Positions 1,984-19,905 of a stretch of DNA of 32,924 nucleotides are shown in pieces. The DNA lies in the IMG/VR virus record IMGVR_UViG_3300035492_000062, positions 1 through 32,924 of that record; one strand, given 5' to 3'. Source of the DNA: a virus. The notes beneath the pieces were generated by a model that saw nothing but the letters and a program-made list of their open reading frames with translations, had not been told where the DNA came from and searched no databases. Made by a program: the position numbers and the translations under genes. The stretch's first letter is position 1, and the number at the start of each line of letters is the position of its first letter.

Positions 1984-3936
1984 ATGGATTTATTAGAAGT
2001 AGCCTTGCGATATGCCAGAAACGGCATAAAGGTTTTTCCTTGCAATTCTAGCAAAATTCCCGCCGAAAGAGGCGGTAATGGGTATAAAGATGCCACAACA
2101 TCCGAGAAAATAATCACGGATTGGTGGACTCGTATGCCAAATTCACTCATTGGTGCACCAAATGATCAGTTTCTGGTTATAGACTCAGATGACTATGACT
2201 TGTGCTATCTTGGTAAGATGCTACACCAACAAGCACTAACCAGACTAACAGAAGAACAAATTATCACAGAAGATGCCATGAGAGTGAAAACTGTCTCTGG
2301 TGGTACGCACTACTATTTTAAAAAAGACAACATATCCACTCGCTCCATTAAATGTCTTCCATATTTTGATCTGCTGTCCACTGGTGGTTATACCATTCTT
2401 CCAGACCAGTTAAACTATGTAGCAATCAACACGGATGTGCCATGGGATAAGATTTTAGACCTCCCAAAGTTTAAGGTAAAGGAATTTACCTACTTGGTTG
2501 ACGAGTTTGAAGAAGCAACATTAGCAGCAAAACGTCTAAAAGTTGACTCCGGTACTAAGTTAAGAGAGAAAAAGAATCCATCAAAGACAATTACCTTTAA
2601 AAAGAAAGAACCAGAAGAACTGCCAGAAAAAACTGATCATGAACTATACACACCTGCTGAGAAAAGAGACAACCCCTTCGTCAATGAAAGTCTACTGACT
2701 AATGGGAAACTTTATCTGAAAAAAGGTGAACTAAACTCAGAACTGGTCAATCGACTTTTTTATAATCGAGAGATACAACAGAAATTAGGAAAGTTTCTTG
2801 GTCTGAAACAAACTGACGATAGGATAACTCAGAGATCTGTTTTCACTCACCATCAAGATAAAAAACCATCAATGGGTGTAAGGTGGTCAAAGGAAAAGAC
2901 ATATCTGATTGTAAGAGATTTTTCTCTATTTTTCAGTAAACAGAAAGAATCAGACTATGATTTGGTGCGTTTATACACATCAAATATGTACGGTAGATCT
3001 TACAAACCAACAAAGACTGAGTTTGTTTTATGGTTCACTAGGTTACTCCATGAAGCGGGTATTTTACAGGTAGATATAAAACCGCTACCAGAAATAAAGT
3101 TGACTAAGAATGAATCAAAAGTTCTCGGTGCGTTGTATACGTTAGATGCGTATAAATCACTGTATGATGGTTATTCTGGTATGACCACATTCTCGGTTAG
3201 TTTTGCAAAGGCATGGTTGGGTGTAAATATAGGAAACGCCCTCAGTAAAATTAAAAAGTCACTGGTAGAGAAGAAGCTGATAGAAATTGTGGGAGACTAC
3301 GATTGCGCTGCAACATATCGGACTGATGGGTTTTATAAAACAGAATTGATTAAATTATCTGAAGGTGAACCAATGAATAACAACTCAAAATTAGCAACAC
3401 AACAATCTCAAGAAAATGAGGTTGAGAAAAAATATCCAGATCTTGGTACTGTATACTCGTTGAAAGTATCAGAAAAGTCATATAAAATTTTAAAGAATTT
3501 CTGTGATGACTTTGACATCCCAAACACACCAGATCGTGACTATATGCACGCTCCACTTCTTGTATCAGACTCATTCATTGCTGATGTATTAGAGAAGCCG
3601 GAAACACAATACCTGATGAATGATTTAACTTTGTTTATTGTGGATGCTGATGACAGAAACATGCTCATGTGTGAGGGTAAGAGTACAGCGTTTGAAGAAC
3701 TTTGGCGAATGATAAATGATAAACATGGAAAACGTAGAGATGATTTCATTGAAGACCCCATCCCAGCGTTTGTTCTGAGTTATGATATTGGTGACGTTGA
3801 ATTAGACTTAAATGCGTTGGAATTGAAACTGAACGAGTACACTAACCCAGCAATCATGTTAAACGATTTTAAAACACACTATATTAATAATGACCAGATG
3901 GATGATGTTTTAGACGGAATCGCACCGGAGATTTAA
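1984..3936 (+). CDS. Bifunctional primase-polymerase (AEP prim-pol) with C-terminal gp57B/Acb1-like 2H domain
   Basis: N-terminal prim-pol motifs: ALRYARNGIKVFPC..K.P, GYKDATT, WW...PN..IG, LVIDSD, VKTVSGGTHYYF, GGYTILP. The C-terminal ~170 aa resemble T4 gp57B (see findings). Confidence 0.85.
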   Translation: MDLLEVALRYARNGIKVFPCNSSKIPAERGGNGYKDATTSEKIITDWWTRMPNSLIGAPNDQFLVIDSDDYDLCYLGKMLHQQALTRLTEEQIITEDAMRVKTVSGGTHYYFKKDNISTRSIKCLPYFDLLSTGGYTILPDQLNYVAINTDVPWDKILDLPKFKVKEFTYLVDEFEEATLAAKRLKVDSGTKLREKKNPSKTITFKKKEPEELPEKTDHELYTPAEKRDNPFVNESLLTNGKLYLKKGELNSELVNRLFYNREIQQKLGKFLGLKQTDDRITQRSVFTHHQDKKPSMGVRWSKEKTYLIVRDFSLFFSKQKESDYDLVRLYTSNMYGRSYKPTKTEFVLWFTRLLHEAGILQVDIKPLPEIKLTKNESKVLGALYTLDAYKSLYDGYSGMTTFSVSFAKAWLGVNIGNALSKIKKSLVEKKLIEIVGDYDCAATYRTDGFYKTELIKLSEGEPMNNNSKLATQQSQENEVEKKYPDLGTVYSLKVSEKSYKILKNFCDDFDIPNTPDRDYMHAPLLVSDSFIADVLEKPETQYLMNDLTLFIVDADDRNMLMCEGKSTAFEELWRMINDKHGKRRDDFIEDPIPAFVLSYDIGDVELDLNALELKLNEYTNPAIMLNDFKTHYINNDQMDDVLDGIAPEI

Positions 3937-3947
3937 TCTCCGGTTTT
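3924..3947. terminator. Hairpin between convergent genes, probable terminator
   Basis: ACCGGAGATT-t-AATCTCCGGT inverted repeat followed by TTT, between the prim-pol stop and the gp2 stop. Confidence 0.6.
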
Positions 3948-4458
3948 ATCTCACACCAAGTTTATATAAATTCTCATACGGGGATTTTACCTTTAAAACA
4001 TCCGGCCACTCATTCAGTTGGTAGGTTTTTTCTACACGAATACCAATAATTTTATACCGCCGAACAATTCCCTGAACCTGTGGGACCAAACGTTTCAAAC
4101 TGTCATAGTTTATAATTATTGGAGTGTTTCCTTTTATTCTAGCTGCGTTTGCATCCAACACGTATTTTAAAATCTTTCTCCTATAAAGTGGCGGTATATA
4201 ACGCAAATTTAACCCGATGACAGTATTGTACTGTGGCTCAAACCCCATTATTAATACTAATGGTGTCCTGTCATGATCATAGCCTGCATATGAAATGTCT
4301 GAGATCCCTCCCAAAACCATATTCTGAATTTTTTTCTTCTGGTACTGTCTGGTTGCATAGATATTCGGGTCTTGCATACCAAGACCAACTTTAGTCATAT
4401 CATACCCATCGTACATGTCCAACAGGTCTTTTGTTATTGCTTGGCTTATGACTGCCAT
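3946..4458 (-). CDS. gp2: DNA end protector protein (T4 gp2-like)
   Basis: HDRTPLVLIMG...GLNLRYIPP..R resembles the gp2 motif D.FPL...GLNLHY.PP; GGAGGAG RBS; the only credible minus-strand gene. Confidence 0.75.
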   Translation of the reverse strand: MAVISQAITKDLLDMYDGYDMTKVGLGMQDPNIYATRQYQKKKIQNMVLGGISDISYAGYDHDRTPLVLIMGFEPQYNTVIGLNLRYIPPLYRRKILKYVLDANAARIKGNTPIIINYDSLKRLVPQVQGIVRRYKIIGIRVEKTYQLNEWPDVLKVKSPYENLYKLGVR

Positions 4459-4480: not shown

Positions 4481-4505
4481 GTAAATAAGTGATGTAATTA
4501 TTTAT
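4481..4505. promoter_or_regulatory. Overlapping divergent late promoters (GTAAATA on +, ATAAATA on -)
   Basis: GTAAATA at 4481-4487 upstream of the portal; TATTTAT at 4499-4505 reads ATAAATA toward gp2. Both resemble the T4 late promoter TATAAATA. Confidence 0.55.
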
Positions 4506-4519
4506 TGTCGAGGAAAACG

Positions 4520-7453
4520 ATGACTGAAATATTAAAAGAGAGTGCGTGGAAGCCTGTGAGTTTGGGTAGGGCTAAAAATGGCTACGACATCACTGCAACC
4601 GCCGTAAGTTCATCTTGGTACAACACACAACTAGATAACTCTGGTACACGTCTGACTCGTCTGAGACGTTTTCATGATGCAGATTGCTGCTCGGTAGAAA
4701 TCAGTCGTGCTTTAGATATTCTTGCCCAAGATATCAGTTCATCAAATGCTGACGATGAACCTATTTTTTATTTAGACTATGACGAGAATATAGATTTCAA
4801 AAAATCAACAATTTCTCTTTTGAATGAAATGAAGAATCTTTGGGAAAAGAGAACTGAGTTTGAAGATAAACTTTTTGACCGTGTAAGAAAAGTTCTGAAG
4901 TACGGCTCGCAGTTCTGGAGACGCAATGCTGATGGCTCGTTAAAGTACTATCCGACTGAACGAATGATTGGATATATTTTAAATGAAGATAATGAAGAAG
5001 AAGTCACACACTACGTATATGATCCTAAAGCACAGTTGGTAGAACAAGATCACAACTTCATTAGAAACCTTAGCCAACAACAGAAGAAAAAAGAAGTAGA
5101 AGTTATCCCAGTATCAGAGTTAGTCATTTTAAAAATTGGTGATAAGCCATTTGGTGAGTCTGTACTGGAAAAAGTTTATTCAACATGGCGTCAACTTCAC
5201 ATGTTAGAGACTGCAATGGTCATCTATCGTGTTGTACGGGCACCAGAGCGCAGAATTTATTATATTGATACCGGAAACTTACAAGGACACAAGCGTGAAG
5301 CTGCTATTGAGAAACAGCGTTTACGCCTGATGCAGAAGCAAGTAACCAAGGGCAATACTGGCGACGTCTCAACTGAATATGATCCACATTCAACGAGTGA
5401 AGACATCTTCATTCCAACCAACTCACAGGGTAAAGGCTCTAGAGTGGAAACGTTACAAGGTGGATGTTTGGCAATGGACACCAAAGTTGCGCTTTTAGAT
5501 GGCCGCCATCTTTCAATAAAAGATATTGAAGATGAAATGAAGTCTGGAAAAACACTTTGGACATATTCCGCTTGCCCAGAAACGGGAAAACTAGCAGCAG
5601 GTCTAATCACTTGGGCTGGGGTAACTCAAAAATCAGCGAAAGTTATGAGAATCACCCTTGATAATGGTGAAACTGTCGTATGTACACTTGACCACAAGTT
5701 CCCTGTACAGCAAAAAGGTTTCCTGCGAGCTGATGAGTTGAAAATTGGCGAAAGTATGATGCCGTTTACTAAGAAATTTGAAAAAATTTCTGAAAAGACT
5801 GGCGATTATGAATTAGTTTATGACATCTCTACAAGAGAATGGATTTATACACATAGACTGGTTGCTGATTCTTTGCGCGGTGATGTTGTTGAAGTTAATG
5901 ACTATCTAAATGAAGGTGAAGATGCAAACTTTTATGTAAGACACCACAAGGATTTTGACAGATATAACAATGATCCATCAAATCTGTGTTTTATGACATG
6001 GCTCGGTCATATGAAACTGCATTCTGATTTTGGATTTAGTGAAGAAATGCAAGAAAAAGGCACCATTGCAGCCAAAGAGCGCTTGGTCAAAATGAAAGCG
6101 GAAGATCCAGATGCTTATGCTGAGCATGTAGAAAAAGTCAGACGCAATACCAAAGCATGGTGGGATAGTCTGACACAGACAGAACGTGATGATATGTCTA
6201 AGATTTTTTCTAAAAACATCAAAAATTATATAGAAAGTCTTTCTGAAGAAGAAAAAGAAGCTCGTGCTGAAATATCAAGAATAAACTTTAAAAAAGGTTC
6301 AGATGTTTTTCATGAGAAATTTGCGACAGATCCAGAGTTTGCTGAATTTATTATGAAAAAACGTATGGAGTACTGGACAGAAGAAAATAGAAAAGCTCAC
6401 GGTGCGAAATCATCAAAGAATATGAAAAAACTTTGGGATAACAACAGAGAGACTTTACTTAAAAATCATAAAGAACGGCAGAAGTTAGTATTCTCTCAGT
6501 CGATGATGGATTGCGCGATCTCTTTATGTTCAGGAAAAACAACGCACGAATACACAATTGAATCTTTAGTTAGTGACATGAATAACAACAGTGAAATTGT
6601 TGGTGAATTTTTAGAATTAAACTCTAAAAAATCAACACCAAACTTCAGTGTTGAAAACGGATTCACTAAGGGAAGTATCATTAAAATGTGTAAGCAGTAT
6701 GGTTATAAGACTTACCATCAATTCAGAAAAAATCTTAAATTGCACAACCACAAAATTGTGAATATTGAGATTCTTGATGATGAAATAGAAGTCGGTACTT
6801 TAACCATTGATGGTCAAGAAAAATATCACGACTATCACACATTTGCTCTTTCTTGTGGAATTTTTACTAAAAACTCTGCATTGGGTGAAGTGAGAGATGT
6901 AAAATACTTCCTTGATAAATTAGCAGCCGGTTTGAGAATCCCAAGCTCAATGATCGACTCTGGTGGAGAAGAAAGTAGAGATCAGTACTCAGACATGCGT
7001 GTAGGTCAAGTCTATCAAATAGAAATTCGTTACATTGGACACATCAAACGTATTCAAAGATACTTTGAAAAGGTTCTACATTGTGAGTTTGAAATGTTCT
7101 GTAAAAATCGTGAAGTCATGATTCCAGAAGGGATTAAGCTCATGATTAACGAACCAACATCATTTGCACTCTATAAAGAAATCGAAGTGAACCAAGCATT
7201 GTTAAACGTTTATAACAGCACAATGAGTATTCAGCAGCTGTCTAAAAAATATGCAATGAAGAAGTATCTTGGTTTTGATGATGAAGATTTGAGACAAAAC
7301 GAACGAGACAAGCTGATACAAATTGGTCTGGACGATAAGACCATCAAAGCATTAGATCAGCGATTGATTGAAAATATTGTATATGGTGATGGACGTGCTG
7401 CTGCTAATAACTTAGGTCTGCCACCAGAAACATTCCAACCGACAGGATATTAA
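4520..7453 (+). CDS. gp20: Portal protein (T4 gp20-like) containing an intein
   Basis: Portal motifs QLHMLETAMVIYRVVRAPERRIYYIDTGNL, EDIFIP, VETLQGG, DVKYF..KL...LRIPSS. ATG at 4520 preceded by GAGGA is preferred over TTG 4505. Confidence 0.95.
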   Translation: MTEILKESAWKPVSLGRAKNGYDITATAVSSSWYNTQLDNSGTRLTRLRRFHDADCCSVEISRALDILAQDISSSNADDEPIFYLDYDENIDFKKSTISLLNEMKNLWEKRTEFEDKLFDRVRKVLKYGSQFWRRNADGSLKYYPTERMIGYILNEDNEEEVTHYVYDPKAQLVEQDHNFIRNLSQQQKKKEVEVIPVSELVILKIGDKPFGESVLEKVYSTWRQLHMLETAMVIYRVVRAPERRIYYIDTGNLQGHKREAAIEKQRLRLMQKQVTKGNTGDVSTEYDPHSTSEDIFIPTNSQGKGSRVETLQGGCLAMDTKVALLDGRHLSIKDIEDEMKSGKTLWTYSACPETGKLAAGLITWAGVTQKSAKVMRITLDNGETVVCTLDHKFPVQQKGFLRADELKIGESMMPFTKKFEKISEKTGDYELVYDISTREWIYTHRLVADSLRGDVVEVNDYLNEGEDANFYVRHHKDFDRYNNDPSNLCFMTWLGHMKLHSDFGFSEEMQEKGTIAAKERLVKMKAEDPDAYAEHVEKVRRNTKAWWDSLTQTERDDMSKIFSKNIKNYIESLSEEEKEARAEISRINFKKGSDVFHEKFATDPEFAEFIMKKRMEYWTEENRKAHGAKSSKNMKKLWDNNRETLLKNHKERQKLVFSQSMMDCAISLCSGKTTHEYTIESLVSDMNNNSEIVGEFLELNSKKSTPNFSVENGFTKGSIIKMCKQYGYKTYHQFRKNLKLHNHKIVNIEILDDEIEVGTLTIDGQEKYHDYHTFALSCGIFTKNSALGEVRDVKYFLDKLAAGLRIPSSMIDSGGEESRDQYSDMRVGQVYQIEIRYIGHIKRIQRYFEKVLHCEFEMFCKNREVMIPEGIKLMINEPTSFALYKEIEVNQALLNVYNSTMSIQQLSKKYAMKKYLGFDDEDLRQNERDKLIQIGLDDKTIKALDQRLIENIVYGDGRAAANNLGLPPETFQPTGY
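5465..6874 (+). mobile_element. Intein (470 aa) with HNH homing endonuclease, inside the portal
   Basis: Block A CLAMDTKVALLDG, block B VCTLDHKF, HNH motif RHHKDFDRYNNDPSNL...H..LH, C-terminal VGTLTIDG...HTFAL..GIFTKN followed by Ser+1. Confidence 0.93.
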
Positions 7454-7456
7454 ACT

Positions 7457-7888
7457 ATGAATGAAGAAAAATTAAAACTAAAAATTAAGAGAAAAATCCA
7501 AGACAGAATAATTCAAGAATCTCGGTTAGCTAATGTAGGCAGGGTAGTTGGTGCTAGTTTATTAGGAGCTGCGTCTGGTGCTGCTGTTTCTGCTGGAGCA
7601 GCTGCTCTACTTGGAAGCAATAAAGTATCAGTCGGTATGAGTGCTGCGCGTGGTGCATTGGCCGGTGCTGCTCTTTCTGCCAAGAACCAATATGATAAAA
7701 ATAAAACTCATGCAGAACACTATCGGGTTAAGGATTTAAAGAAGATGATCGAGCGAGGCATAAAAGAACTACAAAAGATCAGGAATTCTAATGACTCCGA
7801 TAAAGATGAGCGTATGAAAAATAAAACAGAACAGATAAGAAAATGGACTGCTGAAATGCAAGAAATCATTTCTCGCAACAATAAATGA
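7457..7888 (+). CDS. Glycine-zipper protein, putative internal head protein
   Basis: Gly/Ala-rich hydrophobic segment; IQE-S possible protease site; C-terminus paralogous to 8536..8892; lies between portal and protease. Confidence 0.6.
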   Translation: MNEEKLKLKIKRKIQDRIIQESRLANVGRVVGASLLGAASGAAVSAGAAALLGSNKVSVGMSAARGALAGAALSAKNQYDKNKTHAEHYRVKDLKKMIERGIKELQKIRNSNDSDKDERMKNKTEQIRKWTAEMQEIISRNNK

Positions 7889-7932
7889 CAAAGTAGTAAA
7901 TAAAGTTAGAATTTGAATTTAAGGAGCAATAA

Positions 7933-8526
7933 ATGAGTAACACAATCAAAGCACACGTATCTGACATGATTTCCAAGTATCTAGCAGAAAGCTTCGCTCA
8001 GCAACCTATTGAGTATGAAGTAGACTTGAATGAATCTTTTATTGGTTCTGTAAAAGGTGCAGCTGCTGGCACCGGTGCAGCAATCATCCAAATGGCTGGT
8101 GGTGCATTAACTTTTATTAATGGAGCACCAATTACAGGTACTGTTATTTTCGCATCAAGTATTCTGACAGGTACATTAGTCGGACGTTTAGTTAAAGTTG
8201 GCTATGAAATGGGCACAGTACGCAAATTAGATGCCGAGCTTGCTCAGAACGTAGCAAAACGAGATGAATTGCTTTCAGCATATACGTCTGCAACTGCATT
8301 AGGTTTTGCTGATCCAAAGCAGTATCAATCCAAGGTTGCTCAATTGACAAAAGAACAGCAAAAAATCGGTGACAAGTTAATGAAACATTTAATGAGTTCT
8401 AAGATGACTCTTGAACAACATATCCCGAATGAAGTAATGGACAAGCTGTTCACGATTGCTGATTTAGCAAAGAAAGGTTCAATCACGAGTGTACAAGAAG
8501 CGGCCAAATACCGTGTGTCTTTATAA
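7933..8526 (+). CDS. Putative internal head/virion protein with Gly/Ala-rich hydrophobic helices
   Basis: AAGGAG RBS; GTAAATA at 7896; LAE-S and LNE-S motifs before a hydrophobic hairpin. Confidence 0.6.
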   Translation: MSNTIKAHVSDMISKYLAESFAQQPIEYEVDLNESFIGSVKGAAAGTGAAIIQMAGGALTFINGAPITGTVIFASSILTGTLVGRLVKVGYEMGTVRKLDAELAQNVAKRDELLSAYTSATALGFADPKQYQSKVAQLTKEQQKIGDKLMKHLMSSKMTLEQHIPNEVMDKLFTIADLAKKGSITSVQEAAKYRVSL

Positions 8527-8535
8527 GGAAAAATT

Positions 8536-8892
8536 ATGAAAAATGATATTTTAGATACAATTATTTTAGAAGCAGTCAAAACAACAATAGGTCAGAAAGT
8601 CGGTGCTGCTGCAATGGGTGCTCTTGGTCTTGGTCTTGGGACAGTTGGCAGTGGAAGTTATAAAGTTGGTGCTGCGACTGGTGCAGCTATGGGTGCTGCT
8701 CAGCTTGCAGCATCTAGGAGTAAAAATAAGAAAAGAGCAACAGAACTTCAGGGAATGATTGATCGTGGCAGTGATTTATTGATGAAATGGAAAAAAGAAC
8801 GCAATCCTAGTGATGAAACTAAAAAAGACATTGCTAGAAAAGAAGAACAGATGCGCAAATGGAAAGCTGAACTATCAAAAATCCAGAGCTAA
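8536..8892 (+). CDS. Glycine-zipper protein, paralog of 7457..7888
   Basis: GAAAMGALGLGLG...GAATGAAMGAA; MIDRG...EQMRKWKAEL matches MIERG...EQIRKWTAEM in the paralog. Confidence 0.65.
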   Translation: MKNDILDTIILEAVKTTIGQKVGAAAMGALGLGLGTVGSGSYKVGAATGAAMGAAQLAASRSKNKKRATELQGMIDRGSDLLMKWKKERNPSDETKKDIARKEEQMRKWKAELSKIQS

Positions 8893-8933
8893 TAATTTAT
8901 AATAATTTGCATATTCATTAAGAGGAAAACAAA

Positions 8934-9378
8934 ATGAGTGAAGATTTAAAAGAAATTATTGCAAAAAAAGTACAATTGGCGCTGTTAGAAGGGTGCAAAT
9001 ACACCAAGAAAACGAATGAAGCTGAAGAAGATGATGAACTGGATGATGATGCAGTAGAAGAAATGTCAGTTAGACGTGCAGCAGTCATTGGGGGCTTAGT
9101 TGGTGGACCAGTTGGTGCCATGGTAGGTGGTATGTATGCAAAAGGCAAACAACACACACTAGACGATCAAATTCGAGCTGCTGAGAAAAAAAGTTCAAGA
9201 TTGGTCTAAAGATCCAAAGAATAAATAGAAGGTTGAGAAGAAGCGCAAACAAATCAACCAATGGAAGCGTCAATTAGCAGATCTTAAGACTAAAGGTAAG
9301 GGCGAGGCCGGTGCTGCTCGTACAAAAATGGCTACCACAGATCGTGGTCGCGATCAGGATAATGCATCAAAGAAATAA
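8934..9378 (+). pseudogene. Glycine-zipper paralog interrupted by a frameshift (A7 run) and an in-frame TAG
   Basis: The 0-frame ORF stops at 9209. The +1 frame from 9193 reads VQDWSKDPKNK*KVEKKRKQINQWKRQLADLK...KK to TAA at 9378, matching the paralogs' QIRKW.AE motif. Confidence 0.6.
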
Positions 9379-16554: not shown

Positions 16555-17109
16555 ATGTTAAAACGCTTTAAAATTGACGGTCGGATGCAAGAAGTTTTTG
16601 TTTTACGTCAGACCGAAAACCGTATCGTTTATGTACCAGTAAAATCTATGCACCGTGTAGACTATGAACGTTTCAAAGAGATGTCTGCACAGAAACCTCC
16701 ACGGGTGGATTTGTTAGACTACATGGCTAAGTACAAACTGAAGAATGGTGTTAATGCACTGGTGCAGTATGACAAAATTATTCATGTAGCAAACGTACAT
16801 AACGAAATCGGTACTCGTGTTAAGAAGACTGAGGAAATCATTGATAAGTTTGAACACATGTCAAATACCAATCAAGAACCGCAGCCTAAACGTGCAGTAG
16901 AACCACAACAAGTGAATGAACCAGTTGCACAACAAGTAGCTGTTCAGCACTTGCAAGATGTGACTACTGGTGATGATGAAAAACCAGTCTATCAGTTCAC
17001 CAATAAACATGGTAAATTGCAGCAATGGTTTGGTCAAGGTCGTGTACCAGACTTCTTAAAAGACCACATTGAAGCTGGTGGTGATATTGAAGATTACCGA
17101 CTTAAGTAA
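16555..17109 (+). CDS. Protein with C-terminal H-NS-like DNA-binding domain
   Basis: C-terminus YQFTNKHGKLQQWFGQGRVPDFLKDHIEAGGDIEDYRL matches the H-NS motif Y...G...TWTGQGR.P...G..L.DF; the N-terminus is not recognisably H-NS. Confidence 0.75.
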   Translation: MLKRFKIDGRMQEVFVLRQTENRIVYVPVKSMHRVDYERFKEMSAQKPPRVDLLDYMAKYKLKNGVNALVQYDKIIHVANVHNEIGTRVKKTEEIIDKFEHMSNTNQEPQPKRAVEPQQVNEPVAQQVAVQHLQDVTTGDDEKPVYQFTNKHGKLQQWFGQGRVPDFLKDHIEAGGDIEDYRLK

Positions 17110-17151: not shown

Positions 17152-17195
17152 CATTTCATGCTATCATCTTTAAAACTTAAATGAGGGGGAGTTTA

Positions 17196-18917
17196 ATGGA
17201 TAAAAGTTACATAGATGTACACCACAATCCATACGAAGGGCAGATCCATGTCTGGACACGAGATAAGTCTGGAAAATTAGAATACGAGGTTGTCTCGGAT
17301 GCTGATTACCTGTATCTTTTTGTCCCAGACAATACTGGCAAAACTGAATTCGTAAACATGAAGCGCAAGCCAATGAAGAAGTTGTATTTTGACAATTTAC
17401 GGGAACTTCATGACTACGGCAAACACTATCCAAACGTACACGAGTCAGATGTACCAATTGAGTACAAATACATTCTGGACAACTTCATCAATGCACCATT
17501 TGATTGTCCAATTAATATCGGTTTCTATGACATTGAGGTTGACTTTGACCTGAATGAAGGTAGAGGCTATCCAAGCATCAGAGATCCATTTGGTGCCGTA
17601 AATGCTATCTCTCTTTTTGATCTACATAAGAAAAAGTATGTAATGTTGACTCTTTCTGCTTTGGATGATCTGGATTTAAAAGATGCAGATTTCCCAGTAG
17701 AGACCAGACAATTTTTGTCCGAAAAAGAACTTCTTAGATTTTTCTGTGATAAAGTAGTAAAAGATATTGACATACTTGTTGCTTGGAACGGGGATGCGTT
17801 TGACTTGAACTATATCATGGAAAGACTAATAGTGCTGTTTGGGGAGAAAGATGCAGTAAGAATGCTTTGTAGGGATGGGCAGAAAGCAATAAAAAAAGAA
17901 TTCACTAACGAATTTGGCGAAGAAATTTGGAAATGGCGTCTTGTTGGAAGAAACCATGCCGATATGATGCTGTTGTTTAAAAAATTCCACCCATCATCAC
18001 AGGAATCTTTTTCTCTAAATTCTATCTGTGAAAAGTATTTGGGGATGGAGAAAATAGATTATGATGGCGACCTTGGTGAGTTGTATAGAGAAAATCCGCA
18101 CAAATTTTTTGAGTACAGTTTACACGATACTAGGTTATTGGTTGAGTTGGATAAATCACAGCAGATAATGAAGTTAGCCATCGGTATGACAAGAAACGCT
18201 TGTGTTTTTCTACATGATGCACTTGGTGCCATAAAACTAATAGAGACAGACTTTATAAAATTCTGTCGAAAGAAAGGAAACATAGTATTACCGGATAAAA
18301 TCACTCATAAAAAACAAAGTTATGATGGTGCTATTGTGTACGACACTATTGCAGGATTGCATAATTGGATATTTGGTGTAGACTTACGATCACTGTACCC
18401 ATTCACTATGATAATGTTGGGGCTTTCTCCAGAAACTATGGTTATGCAGTGTTCTGGGGGGTATGAAGATTACATCCATATCATGACAAAAAATGACAGT
18501 TATGGCGAAATCGAAATAGAAATAATAGACACAGGTGAATTCGCAAAAATAAAACCAAGCGAACTGTATGAGATAATCATTGAGAGTGGTATGACTATCT
18601 CTGCGAACGGGACTATCTTTGATGGCAGTCTTGGGCTTTTGGCAGAATACGCGCAAGAAGGATTCAATCTGAGGGCACATTATAAAAAGCTGAAAAAAGA
18701 AGCAGAGAAGATTGGCGATGATCTTATGGCGGCAGTATATGATCTCTATCAGTTAATTGCCAAGATTAAGATAAACTCAATCTATGGTGCTACCGGTAAT
18801 GAGTTTTTTAGATTGTTTGATATTAGGTTGGCGCAGAGTATTACTTTGTCTGCACAGATAGTAAGCAAACAACAGGCATACTCAGCCAACTACTTTTTAG
18901 ATGAGTTGGCTGCATAA
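17196..18917 (+). CDS. gp43A: Family B DNA polymerase, N-terminal subunit (exonuclease, motifs A and B)
   Basis: Exo I YDIEV, Exo II WNGDAFDLNYI, Exo III YSLHDT, motif A DLRSLYP, motif B KIKINSIYG. ATG at 17196 follows GGGGGAG. Confidence 0.92.
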   Translation: MDKSYIDVHHNPYEGQIHVWTRDKSGKLEYEVVSDADYLYLFVPDNTGKTEFVNMKRKPMKKLYFDNLRELHDYGKHYPNVHESDVPIEYKYILDNFINAPFDCPINIGFYDIEVDFDLNEGRGYPSIRDPFGAVNAISLFDLHKKKYVMLTLSALDDLDLKDADFPVETRQFLSEKELLRFFCDKVVKDIDILVAWNGDAFDLNYIMERLIVLFGEKDAVRMLCRDGQKAIKKEFTNEFGEEIWKWRLVGRNHADMMLLFKKFHPSSQESFSLNSICEKYLGMEKIDYDGDLGELYRENPHKFFEYSLHDTRLLVELDKSQQIMKLAIGMTRNACVFLHDALGAIKLIETDFIKFCRKKGNIVLPDKITHKKQSYDGAIVYDTIAGLHNWIFGVDLRSLYPFTMIMLGLSPETMVMQCSGGYEDYIHIMTKNDSYGEIEIEIIDTGEFAKIKPSELYEIIIESGMTISANGTIFDGSLGLLAEYAQEGFNLRAHYKKLKKEAEKIGDDLMAAVYDLYQLIAKIKINSIYGATGNEFFRLFDIRLAQSITLSAQIVSKQQAYSANYFLDELAA

Positions 18918-18960
18918 GCAACACTTTATGTGGTAGTCTATTTATAAAAGTTGAGGTTTT

Positions 18961-19905
18961 ATGGAACACGGAAAATATACGGATTTATCAGAAAAAACAC
19001 CAAACACGATATGGTGCTTTCAAAAAGATGGGTCTTTTGGTAAATTTGTACTAAATCACGCAATCAGTGGGGACAGCGATAGTATATACTGTAAGATCCC
19101 AGAATCAATAACAACTGGACTCTCACAAGATGAGATAGTGCAAGTTGCTGATGAGGTCGCTGGTTACGTAAATGAGTCTTATCCAGATTTTTTGGCAAGA
19201 GCATTTAACTGCCCAAAAAGCAGACAAGATTCTATGCTGTCTAACCGAGAAATAGTTGCCAATGCTGGGTTACTTCTCACTAAGAAAAGATATATAATGA
19301 GGGTGGTGGATGATGAGGGGAAGAAAGTAGACAAACTTAAGATAATGGGCGTAGAAATCATCAAGTCTGATACATCACAGTTTACCAAGAAAATTCTGAT
19401 GGCTATGGTAAACTTGATTTTAGATGGCTGCCCAAGATCAGAAGTTCTATCTCGGATCGCTGAACACAAATCATCCATTTATGAGACACCTGTTAGTGAG
19501 TTAGCTACACCTGCTGGCTGTCGTACACTTTTAAAGGCGTACAAACAGCTTGAAGAGGTCGGAGATCTTAAGGGCATCCACCACACTGCAAGATCTGCAA
19601 TATTCTATAACTCGCTCTGTGGAATAAAAGATCAAAAAATTCGTGCTGGTGATAAGATTGGTATTGTTTACATAAAACATCCAAAGTCCAAGTATCTTGG
19701 GTTTCCAAAAGACGCAGCATACTTGCCAGAGTGGATGGATGATATTATAATTGACTATGCAACACACTGGGATAAGACCCTAGTCAAAATCACAAACTAT
19801 CTTGAAAGTATGGGATGGGATGATCGCTCTATGACTCAGAATTTACGCAGAGATTTGTTTGGAATACCAGAGAAGAAAGTAACCAAAAAGGGAAAGAAAA
19901 AATGA
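18961..19905 (+). CDS. gp43B: Family B DNA polymerase, C-terminal subunit (motif C, thumb)
   Basis: GDSDSIY (motif C), KKRY, LKIMGVEIIKSDT; own GAGG RBS; DLFG near the C-terminus may be a clamp-binding motif. Confidence 0.9.
   Translation: MEHGKYTDLSEKTPNTIWCFQKDGSFGKFVLNHAISGDSDSIYCKIPESITTGLSQDEIVQVADEVAGYVNESYPDFLARAFNCPKSRQDSMLSNREIVANAGLLLTKKRYIMRVVDDEGKKVDKLKIMGVEIIKSDTSQFTKKILMAMVNLILDGCPRSEVLSRIAEHKSSIYETPVSELATPAGCRTLLKAYKQLEEVGDLKGIHHTARSAIFYNSLCGIKDQKIRAGDKIGIVYIKHPKSKYLGFPKDAAYLPEWMDDIIIDYATHWDKTLVKITNYLESMGWDDRSMTQNLRRDLFGIPEKKVTKKGKKK

Follow-up and report, generated by a model that had tools for sequence, protein, structure and literature searches.

Acb1 and its T4 relative gp57B (PF23474, PHROG 755; structures 7t26 and 7t27) are phage anti-CBASS proteins of the 2H fold. 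[quoted passage not shown] In Acb1, residues H44, T46, H113 and T115 are catalytic, Y12, W74, F107 and W147 are stacking residues, and E141 reads adenine (Hobbs et al., PMC9117128). Among divergent viral 2H phosphodiesterases, some of which are also fused to other domains, Doherty et al. retained 75/84 with intact histidines and the core fold (bioRxiv 10.1101/2025.08.21.671373). The main text of that work does not use the word "primase", and its supplementary tables may list hits that were discarded or similar fusions. For 2H domains that phages carry as fusions to MuF or portal proteins, packaging in the head has been proposed, as has a function as active, injected anti-signal enzymes (PMC9503650). 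The available portions of PMC8076793, PMC13577500 and PMC7824862 hold nothing on inactive copies, and no description of a dead Acb1-fold domain was found in the literature searched, which covered few subscription papers.

Here we describe such a domain at the end of a phage primase-polymerase (prim-pol). It has the 2H fold of Acb1/gp57B and a sequence that can be aligned to it, but it lacks the HxT/HxT tetrad and the stacking aromatics, has a predicted helix in place of the Acb1 lid and an extra predicted helix ending in LNEY, is fused to a prim-pol with a putative internal start, and is a core gene where the distribution of Acb1 is patchy. As an Acb1 homologue that fails the defining residues of the family, it was not filed as Acb1. 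Like the MuF and portal fusions, it may tie a 2H domain to head or packaging functions, but without an active site. The prim-pol part has the AEP domain and intact motifs in common with prim-pols of the pRN1 ORF904/NrS-1 type (PF09250). In contrast to these, no helicase domain was detected in its 650-aa ORF, which instead ends in a winged helix followed by the Acb1-fold tail. It belongs to a T4-like phage with its own gp61-like primase and gp41-like helicase.

A prim-pol with a C-terminal extension in a T4-like myovirus

The window, the whole stretch of 32,924 nucleotides analyzed here, opens a virus record of 99,445 bases that is 63% complete. It contains T4-like genes for gp46, a RuvC-like resolvase, gp2, portal, protease, scaffold, capsid, a B-family polymerase and ligase. 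The nearest cultured relatives are the Alishewanella myoviruses Slickus01 and Slicko01 (isolation in PMC10507051), with ~50% identity over both parts of the protein. The ORF and its parts are as follows.

1984..3936 (+): 650-aa ORF comprising prim-pol, middle region and Acb1-fold domain (open frame; AF2)
1984..2532 (+): AEP primase-polymerase domain (PF09250, E 8e-18, 65.8 bits against a cut-off of 22.8)
2716..3072 (+): middle region, a zinc-ribbon-like lead (Atlas feature matches of 0.91-0.92 to Zn_ribbon_DnaG clusters)
3088..3372 (+): winged-helix domain, residues about 369-463 (VIA against 4pta)
3373..3936 (+): 2H domain of Acb1/gp57B fold, lacking the catalytic and base-stacking residues; 187 aa if stand-alone
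3924..3944 (+): terminator-like hairpin between convergent genes (consensus match only)

The first part belongs to the AEP prim-pols: it passes the Pfam cut-off, its catalytic motifs DxD (D67, D69), SGGxH (H109) and D129 are intact and invariant in 20/20 sequences, and it matches the pRN1 prim-pol structure at Z 10.9. Residues 245-460 resemble a cluster of prim-pols of 423 aa in the Atlas (TM 0.67), and residues 231-461 have a net charge of +11. The middle region is probably a degenerate DnaG-type zinc-ribbon-like domain, which we treat as a lead only, and the winged helix superposes on 4pta with a VIA Z of 8.8 and an rmsd of 2.5 over 83 residues, followed by many further winged-helix rows. 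In the full-length AF2 model, the units are folded separately with low-confidence linkers, one of them at 462-471, and the pTM is 0.41.

We also considered whether the prim-pol could be the sole primase of the phage. This was rejected, since a gp61-like primase, with weak matches (E 3e-6 and 3e-10), and a gp41-like helicase are encoded by Slickus and by the window's genome (75 selected ORFs scanned). The prim-pol is thus an extra. Between the resolvase and the prim-pol, the window also holds an 88-aa ORF (1701-1967) of no known family, detected in about half of the loci.

The C-terminal domain has a predicted Acb1-type fold

The first-pass annotation had aligned the domain with T4 gp57B/Acb1 and suggested a structural check on residues 464-650. 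The AlphaFold model of these residues (pLDDT 93, pTM 0.85; alignment of 18 sequences) shows the two-lobed 2H fold. In a Foldseek search of the PDB, FBB1 Acb1 (7t26) ranks first (E 1.1e-7), and VIA superposes the model on it with a Z of 15.6 and an rmsd of 2.2 Å across 139 residues. Judged by title or family, each of the 21 highest VIA rows is a 2H-fold entry (Z 5.9-15.6), and the next, unrelated row is at 4.0. The best viral structural match is also named Acb1, and BCSR5 PDE-9 falls in the same structural group at Z 13.4 (9q2y; bioRxiv 10.1101/2025.08.21.671373).

By sequence, the domain is only 16-18% identical to Acb1, and its Pfam match lies below threshold (PF23474, E 0.015, 15.5 bits against a gathering cut-off of 27), as does that of its best-scoring relative, P0010, at 25.8 bits. 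Despite this weak score, the likeness goes beyond chance: tblastn finds a canonical Acb1, that of Ralstonia phage RsoM2USA, at E 1e-5, and a profile-profile comparison of the domain family with four intact Acb1 proteins gives a probability of 96% (E 3e-9), alongside Foldseek and VIA. Acb1 is the closest relative in both structure and sequence, and the predicted structure and the profile together make an Acb1-type 2H fold almost certain. The first-pass alignment was correct, and the segments quoted in it are present in the translation (HAP at residues 522-524, AFV at 595-597). Searches with the domain by phmmer against PDB sequences, in PHROGs and by Atlas features returned nothing informative, as did a single-protein scan of viral contigs and a tblastn search of the L007 split form against phages; a search of genome contigs gave only one match, a weak unrelated AEP.

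Catalytic and nucleotide-stacking residues are absent

To map residues, Acb1 positions were carried through RB32 gp57B onto 31 dereplicated members in a sequence-based alignment. The features that stand out are listed below.

3496..3510 (+): family-specific NF(C)xD helix, F in 30/31 and D in 31/31 (alignment)
3547..3555 (+): degenerate motif 1, HAP instead of HxT (sequence)
3766..3774 (+): degenerate motif 2, AFV instead of HxT (sequence)
3808..3843 (+): predicted extra helix ending LNEY (Y in 29/31), aligned opposite a gap in RB32 gp57B
3889..3918 (+): predicted C-terminal helix ending LDG (G in 31/31), replacing the Acb1 lid

Both HxT motifs had been noted as altered, and this extends to the whole family: a full motif at either site is found in 0/31 members, and the two HxT/S motifs of 2H enzymes are thus missing. 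H44 is retained in 4/31, T46 in 2/31 and T115 in 1/31; the H113 column is gapped in 27/31, and the position two before T115 is a His in two members, both HFV. The motif-1 His, where present, is always followed by xP, and the four members that carry it form one nested clade (95% SH-aLRT), so that the His in HAP probably arose by reversion. Retention of a half-active site was rejected on the same grounds, the His being limited to this clade and followed by Pro. Judged from these residues, the domain very probably has no 2H hydrolase activity.

The loss reaches the nucleotide pocket, where Y12, W74, F107, E141 and W147 (PMC9117128) are each retained in 0/31 members in the alignment to RB32 57B and the F107 column is Glu or Asp in 28/31. 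This bears on the suggestion of the first-pass annotation that the domain is a sponge or sensor, its dead pocket holding cGAMP or cA3 and thereby hiding it or switching the prim-pol. The nearest fold is indeed Acb1, a 2H fold can bind nucleotide non-catalytically, as in the AKAP18-AMP structure among the Foldseek matches, the first-His column is aromatic in 15/31, and the charge is compatible. With every stacking aromatic and the adenine-reading residue gone, an intact Acb1 in the same genome, and a core-gene distribution steadier than that of the intact enzyme, we nevertheless consider this reading improbable.

The net charge of the domain ranges from -15 to -37 in 31/31 members, with a median of -22, and no basic residue is conserved in at least 60% of them. 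Acidity was dropped as an argument against nucleotide binding and given no weight, since the canonical Ralstonia Acb1 is equally acidic (-20) and the charge next to the pocket is similar in the dead-domain and intact-Acb1 groups. Charge does speak against another early suggestion, a nucleic-acid-binding module, which would hold RNA or DNA in the old 2H groove. Several 2H proteins are nucleic-acid binders or parts of ribonucleoprotein particles (Usb1, ASCC1 and a mitoribosome chain are among the VIA matches), and the domain is fused to a replication enzyme, but a family this acidic throughout makes such a module very improbable.

The domain family has its own set of near-invariant positions (T, D, M, S, Y, D and G). 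Together with purifying selection, these might indicate an enzyme that acts on a new substrate through a new active site. The conserved residues, however, lie on helices and at the terminus and not on the strands of the two motifs, whose columns vary and are hydrophobic; we see very little likelihood in a new enzyme.

Fused, split and stand-alone forms

Loci were counted after near-duplicates (L002, L015, L020, L021, L023, L025, L026, P0011 and P0027), the incomplete L018 and the unrelated L027-L029 had been dropped. P0023 and P0024, in which an unrelated tail follows the prim-pol and for which DNA context is lacking, were left out of the split count, and P0009 and P0003 were taken as one split pair from their equally long contigs (12,029), not from DNA. 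The domain is present in all 18 distinct prim-pol loci with downstream sequence, fused in 12 and split in 6. Whether relatives conserve the fusion had been proposed as a check, and it proves real in these 12/18 loci of Alishewanella-phage-like T4 myoviruses, including the isolated phages Slickus and Slicko. Contigs from other runs span the junction gap-free, with substitutions incompletely listed and a stop still possible there. With conservation in the isolates and in two-thirds of loci, and a junction spanned by independent contigs, the fusion as an artefact was rejected. A near-identical fragment assembly (P0006 and P0026) has a frameshift ~20 codons upstream of the ATG, within the winged helix; at this site, contigs X3 and X6 show no indel.

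The split forms are not a single clade (rejected at p-AU 2e-6), and the window's nearest relative, P0009 (70%), is one of them: it stops behind the winged helix, and the domain is a separate protein, P0003. At L013:5998-9238, a prim-pol ORF of 1007 codons overlaps a separate Acb1-fold gene out of frame for ~500 bases, and long unrelated tails are found on the prim-pol in other split forms as well.

A search through the gp2 neighbor returned 19 loci, 12 on contigs already known and 7 on new contigs. The domain is present in 17/19, and in the two misses the sequence breaks off inside gp2 or about 1.5 kb past it. The new contigs comprise two fusions (L062 and L063), one that begins at the domain (L059), two uninformative ones, and L047/L048. 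In the latter, which represent one lineage, the domain is a stand-alone gene with no adjacent prim-pol, a TAAATA at -33 and a Shine-Dalgarno (SD) energy of -5.6; these contigs are 24% and 39% complete, and a prim-pol elsewhere in the genome is possible. The usual place of the prim-pol (L047:7580-8155) is a 576-base gap with no gene-strand ORF of at least 30 aa, with a 120-base core of 12-15% GC and no match in Rfam. It is possibly an origin or a remnant.

The fusion thus appears dispensable, the domain being separate in 6/18 loci and kept without an adjacent prim-pol in one relative. At the fused loci, the linkers of 7-35 codons are unalignable and open in frame, and alternative frames are open in 3/24. 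Fused loci are open by definition, yet the frame kept across such divergent linkers suggests that the fused form may matter, and a role centered on the prim-pol fits this too. In one such role, the domain would be a late regulator, an acidic DNA mimic that docks, in cis or in trans, on the basic zinc-ribbon-like/winged-helix region and stops or redirects priming late in infection. The two are fused in 12/18 loci and adjacent in the other six, their charges are complementary (-20 versus +11), and the linker frame is kept. Against this, L047/L048 retain the domain without an adjacent prim-pol, the full-length model gives a low pTM and a low-confidence linker between the parts, and the similar 423-aa prim-pols, too short to carry the domain, form their own cluster. 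We regard a prim-pol regulator as unlikely.

The domain is a core gene next to gp2

The gene order gp46-RuvC-prim-pol-domain-gp2-portal holds in all loci, as far as each reaches, with gp2 as a near-constant neighbor.

3946..4458 (-): T4 gp2-like DNA end protector, candidate partner

gp2 is basic in 14/14 members, with a net charge of +3 to +13. At one locus (L016:8228-8734), it lies on the same strand as its neighbors, inverted relative to all other loci. The domain is under purifying selection (dN/dS 0.067, 0.011, 0.083 and 0.30 in four pairs; a fifth pair was saturated). It is also the more constant gene, persisting in L047/L048 without an adjacent prim-pol, which does not fit the early view of the domain as an accessory of the prim-pol.

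The window's genome also encodes an intact Acb1 (G000:63101-63613, -; 100 bits), with both HxT motifs and an alignment to 7t26 (E 3e-10). This gene closes a run of gp15-like and gp3-like tail genes, as does a further intact copy at L030:1495-1986 (-), and the one in Slickus is labelled hypothetical protein. The two copies recall the RB32 cluster 4-2-3-1-57A-57B, the dead copy adjoining gene 2 and the intact copy the gene-3-like tail gene. Among complete genomes, the dead copy is found in 4/4 and the intact Acb1 in 2/4 (Slickus and G001); in G002 and G003, none was found with three models at loose, first-look sensitivity. A long branch separates dead and intact copies in the tree, where a long-branch artefact is possible.

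Co-occurrence with the intact enzyme in the window's genome, Slickus and G001 could mean that the dead copy shields its paralogue, as a decoy for a host sensor or for an inhibitor of Acb1. Its presence in the complete genomes G002 and G003 without a detectable intact Acb1, its low identity to Acb1 and its fixed core position leave this reading hardly credible.

A putative internal start and late expression

The first-pass annotation had pointed to an in-frame ATG with an RBS-like sequence, and to a possible stand-alone product.

3362..3375 (+): Shine-Dalgarno-like AAGGTG (3362-3367) and in-frame ATG (3373), spacing 5 nt (sequence)

Both elements are there, and the ATG opens a frame of 187 aa. 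The SD duplex of the window is modest (-4.4 kcal/mol; sliding-window p 0.08). Across fused loci, a linker ATG with an SD of -3 kcal/mol or lower is found in 12/12, compared with 24/124 ATGs inside the prim-pol part, and an SD reaching -4 in 11/12 compared with 10/124. The best ATG per linker was used and the loci are related, so that P values from this test are optimistic.

TAAATA is the core of the T4 late promoter. It occurs within 200 nt upstream of the domain in 8/18 loci, which are related, against 2.1 expected (P 0.0004, likewise optimistic); in Slickus it is at -26. The window has no TAAATA upstream of the domain, only TATAAAAC at 3334-3341, which falls within the codons of a conserved peptide. 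TAAATA precedes 9/18 chosen structural genes in the window's genome and 16/21 in Slickus, which also encodes a late sigma factor; a sigma-70 promoter scan gave chance level. The conserved internal starts and the separate genes in relatives thus lend support to a stand-alone product, and a late one, found as a separate gene in relatives, is likely made from the window as well.

A leader M-[KRN]-h-x-E-h, defined post hoc, opens the intact Acb1 here and the internal product in six relatives, is absent from the window's internal product, and occurs in 1/120 ORFs of the window's genome and 2/170 of Slickus. RB32 57B directly precedes three internal-head-protein genes, and internal head proteins enter the head via a conserved capsid-targeting sequence (PMC3012670). 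The leader pattern may be a further, weak hint that links the domain to the head.

A possible role in DNA packaging or head assembly

We propose, with moderate confidence, that this Acb1/gp57B paralogue has become a non-catalytic core late protein that binds other proteins during DNA packaging or head assembly. The clade keeps, as a core gene, a second fold copy that has lost the catalytic and nucleotide-stacking residues, and a 21-kDa product would be made late from the ATG at 3373 beside the 650-aa read-through. The fusion may be a frequent, dispensable read-through that tethers the prim-pol to the docking site of the domain. For a core late gene beside gp2 and portal that persists longer than either the prim-pol or the active Acb1, packaging or head assembly is a better fit than defense. 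From its timing, position and conservation, we give an even chance to the domain binding a phage late protein, via the NF(C)xD helix, the LNEY helix and the terminal LDG helix. The basic gp2 DNA-end protector is the first candidate partner, tentatively and with the chances against it. In a bolder and quite unlikely version, a duplicated anti-CBASS enzyme would have become essential as a protein of the virion or of packaging, and its nested gene, with a late stand-alone product and a prim-pol read-through, would load the prim-pol into the head or onto packaged DNA ends for delivery at the next infection.

Under the packaging or head reading, the fold of a phage anti-defense enzyme was apparently turned into a conserved, non-enzymatic core gene beside an active paralogue, hinting that the gp57B lineage also serves late morphogenesis, separately from its cleavage of cGAMP. 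Annotation is affected in either case, as fold-based screens would count the domain as anti-CBASS and histidine filters would discard it. With Slickus, Slicko and their host in culture, the internal start, the location in the virion and the partner are directly testable.

Other features of the genomes

Several further features were observed in the window and in related contigs. The portal gene of the window (4505-7453) is split by an intein with an HNH domain, and there is no such insert in the Slickus portal. The B-family DNA polymerase consists of two ORFs (window 17181-19905), likewise in Slickus, and a protein with an H-NS C-terminal DNA-binding domain (E 2.6e-6) is encoded at 16555-17109. 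On another contig, a 1088-aa ORF (L037:5595-8858) stands where Slickus has a 767-aa nrdA, with a possible insert, and an RNA ligase carries a LAGLIDADG insert (L037:12028-14373). Between portal and prohead protease, the window has four small ORFs (7457-9209) with Gly/Ala-rich segments and I/L-x-E words near their starts, which are possibly internal head proteins.
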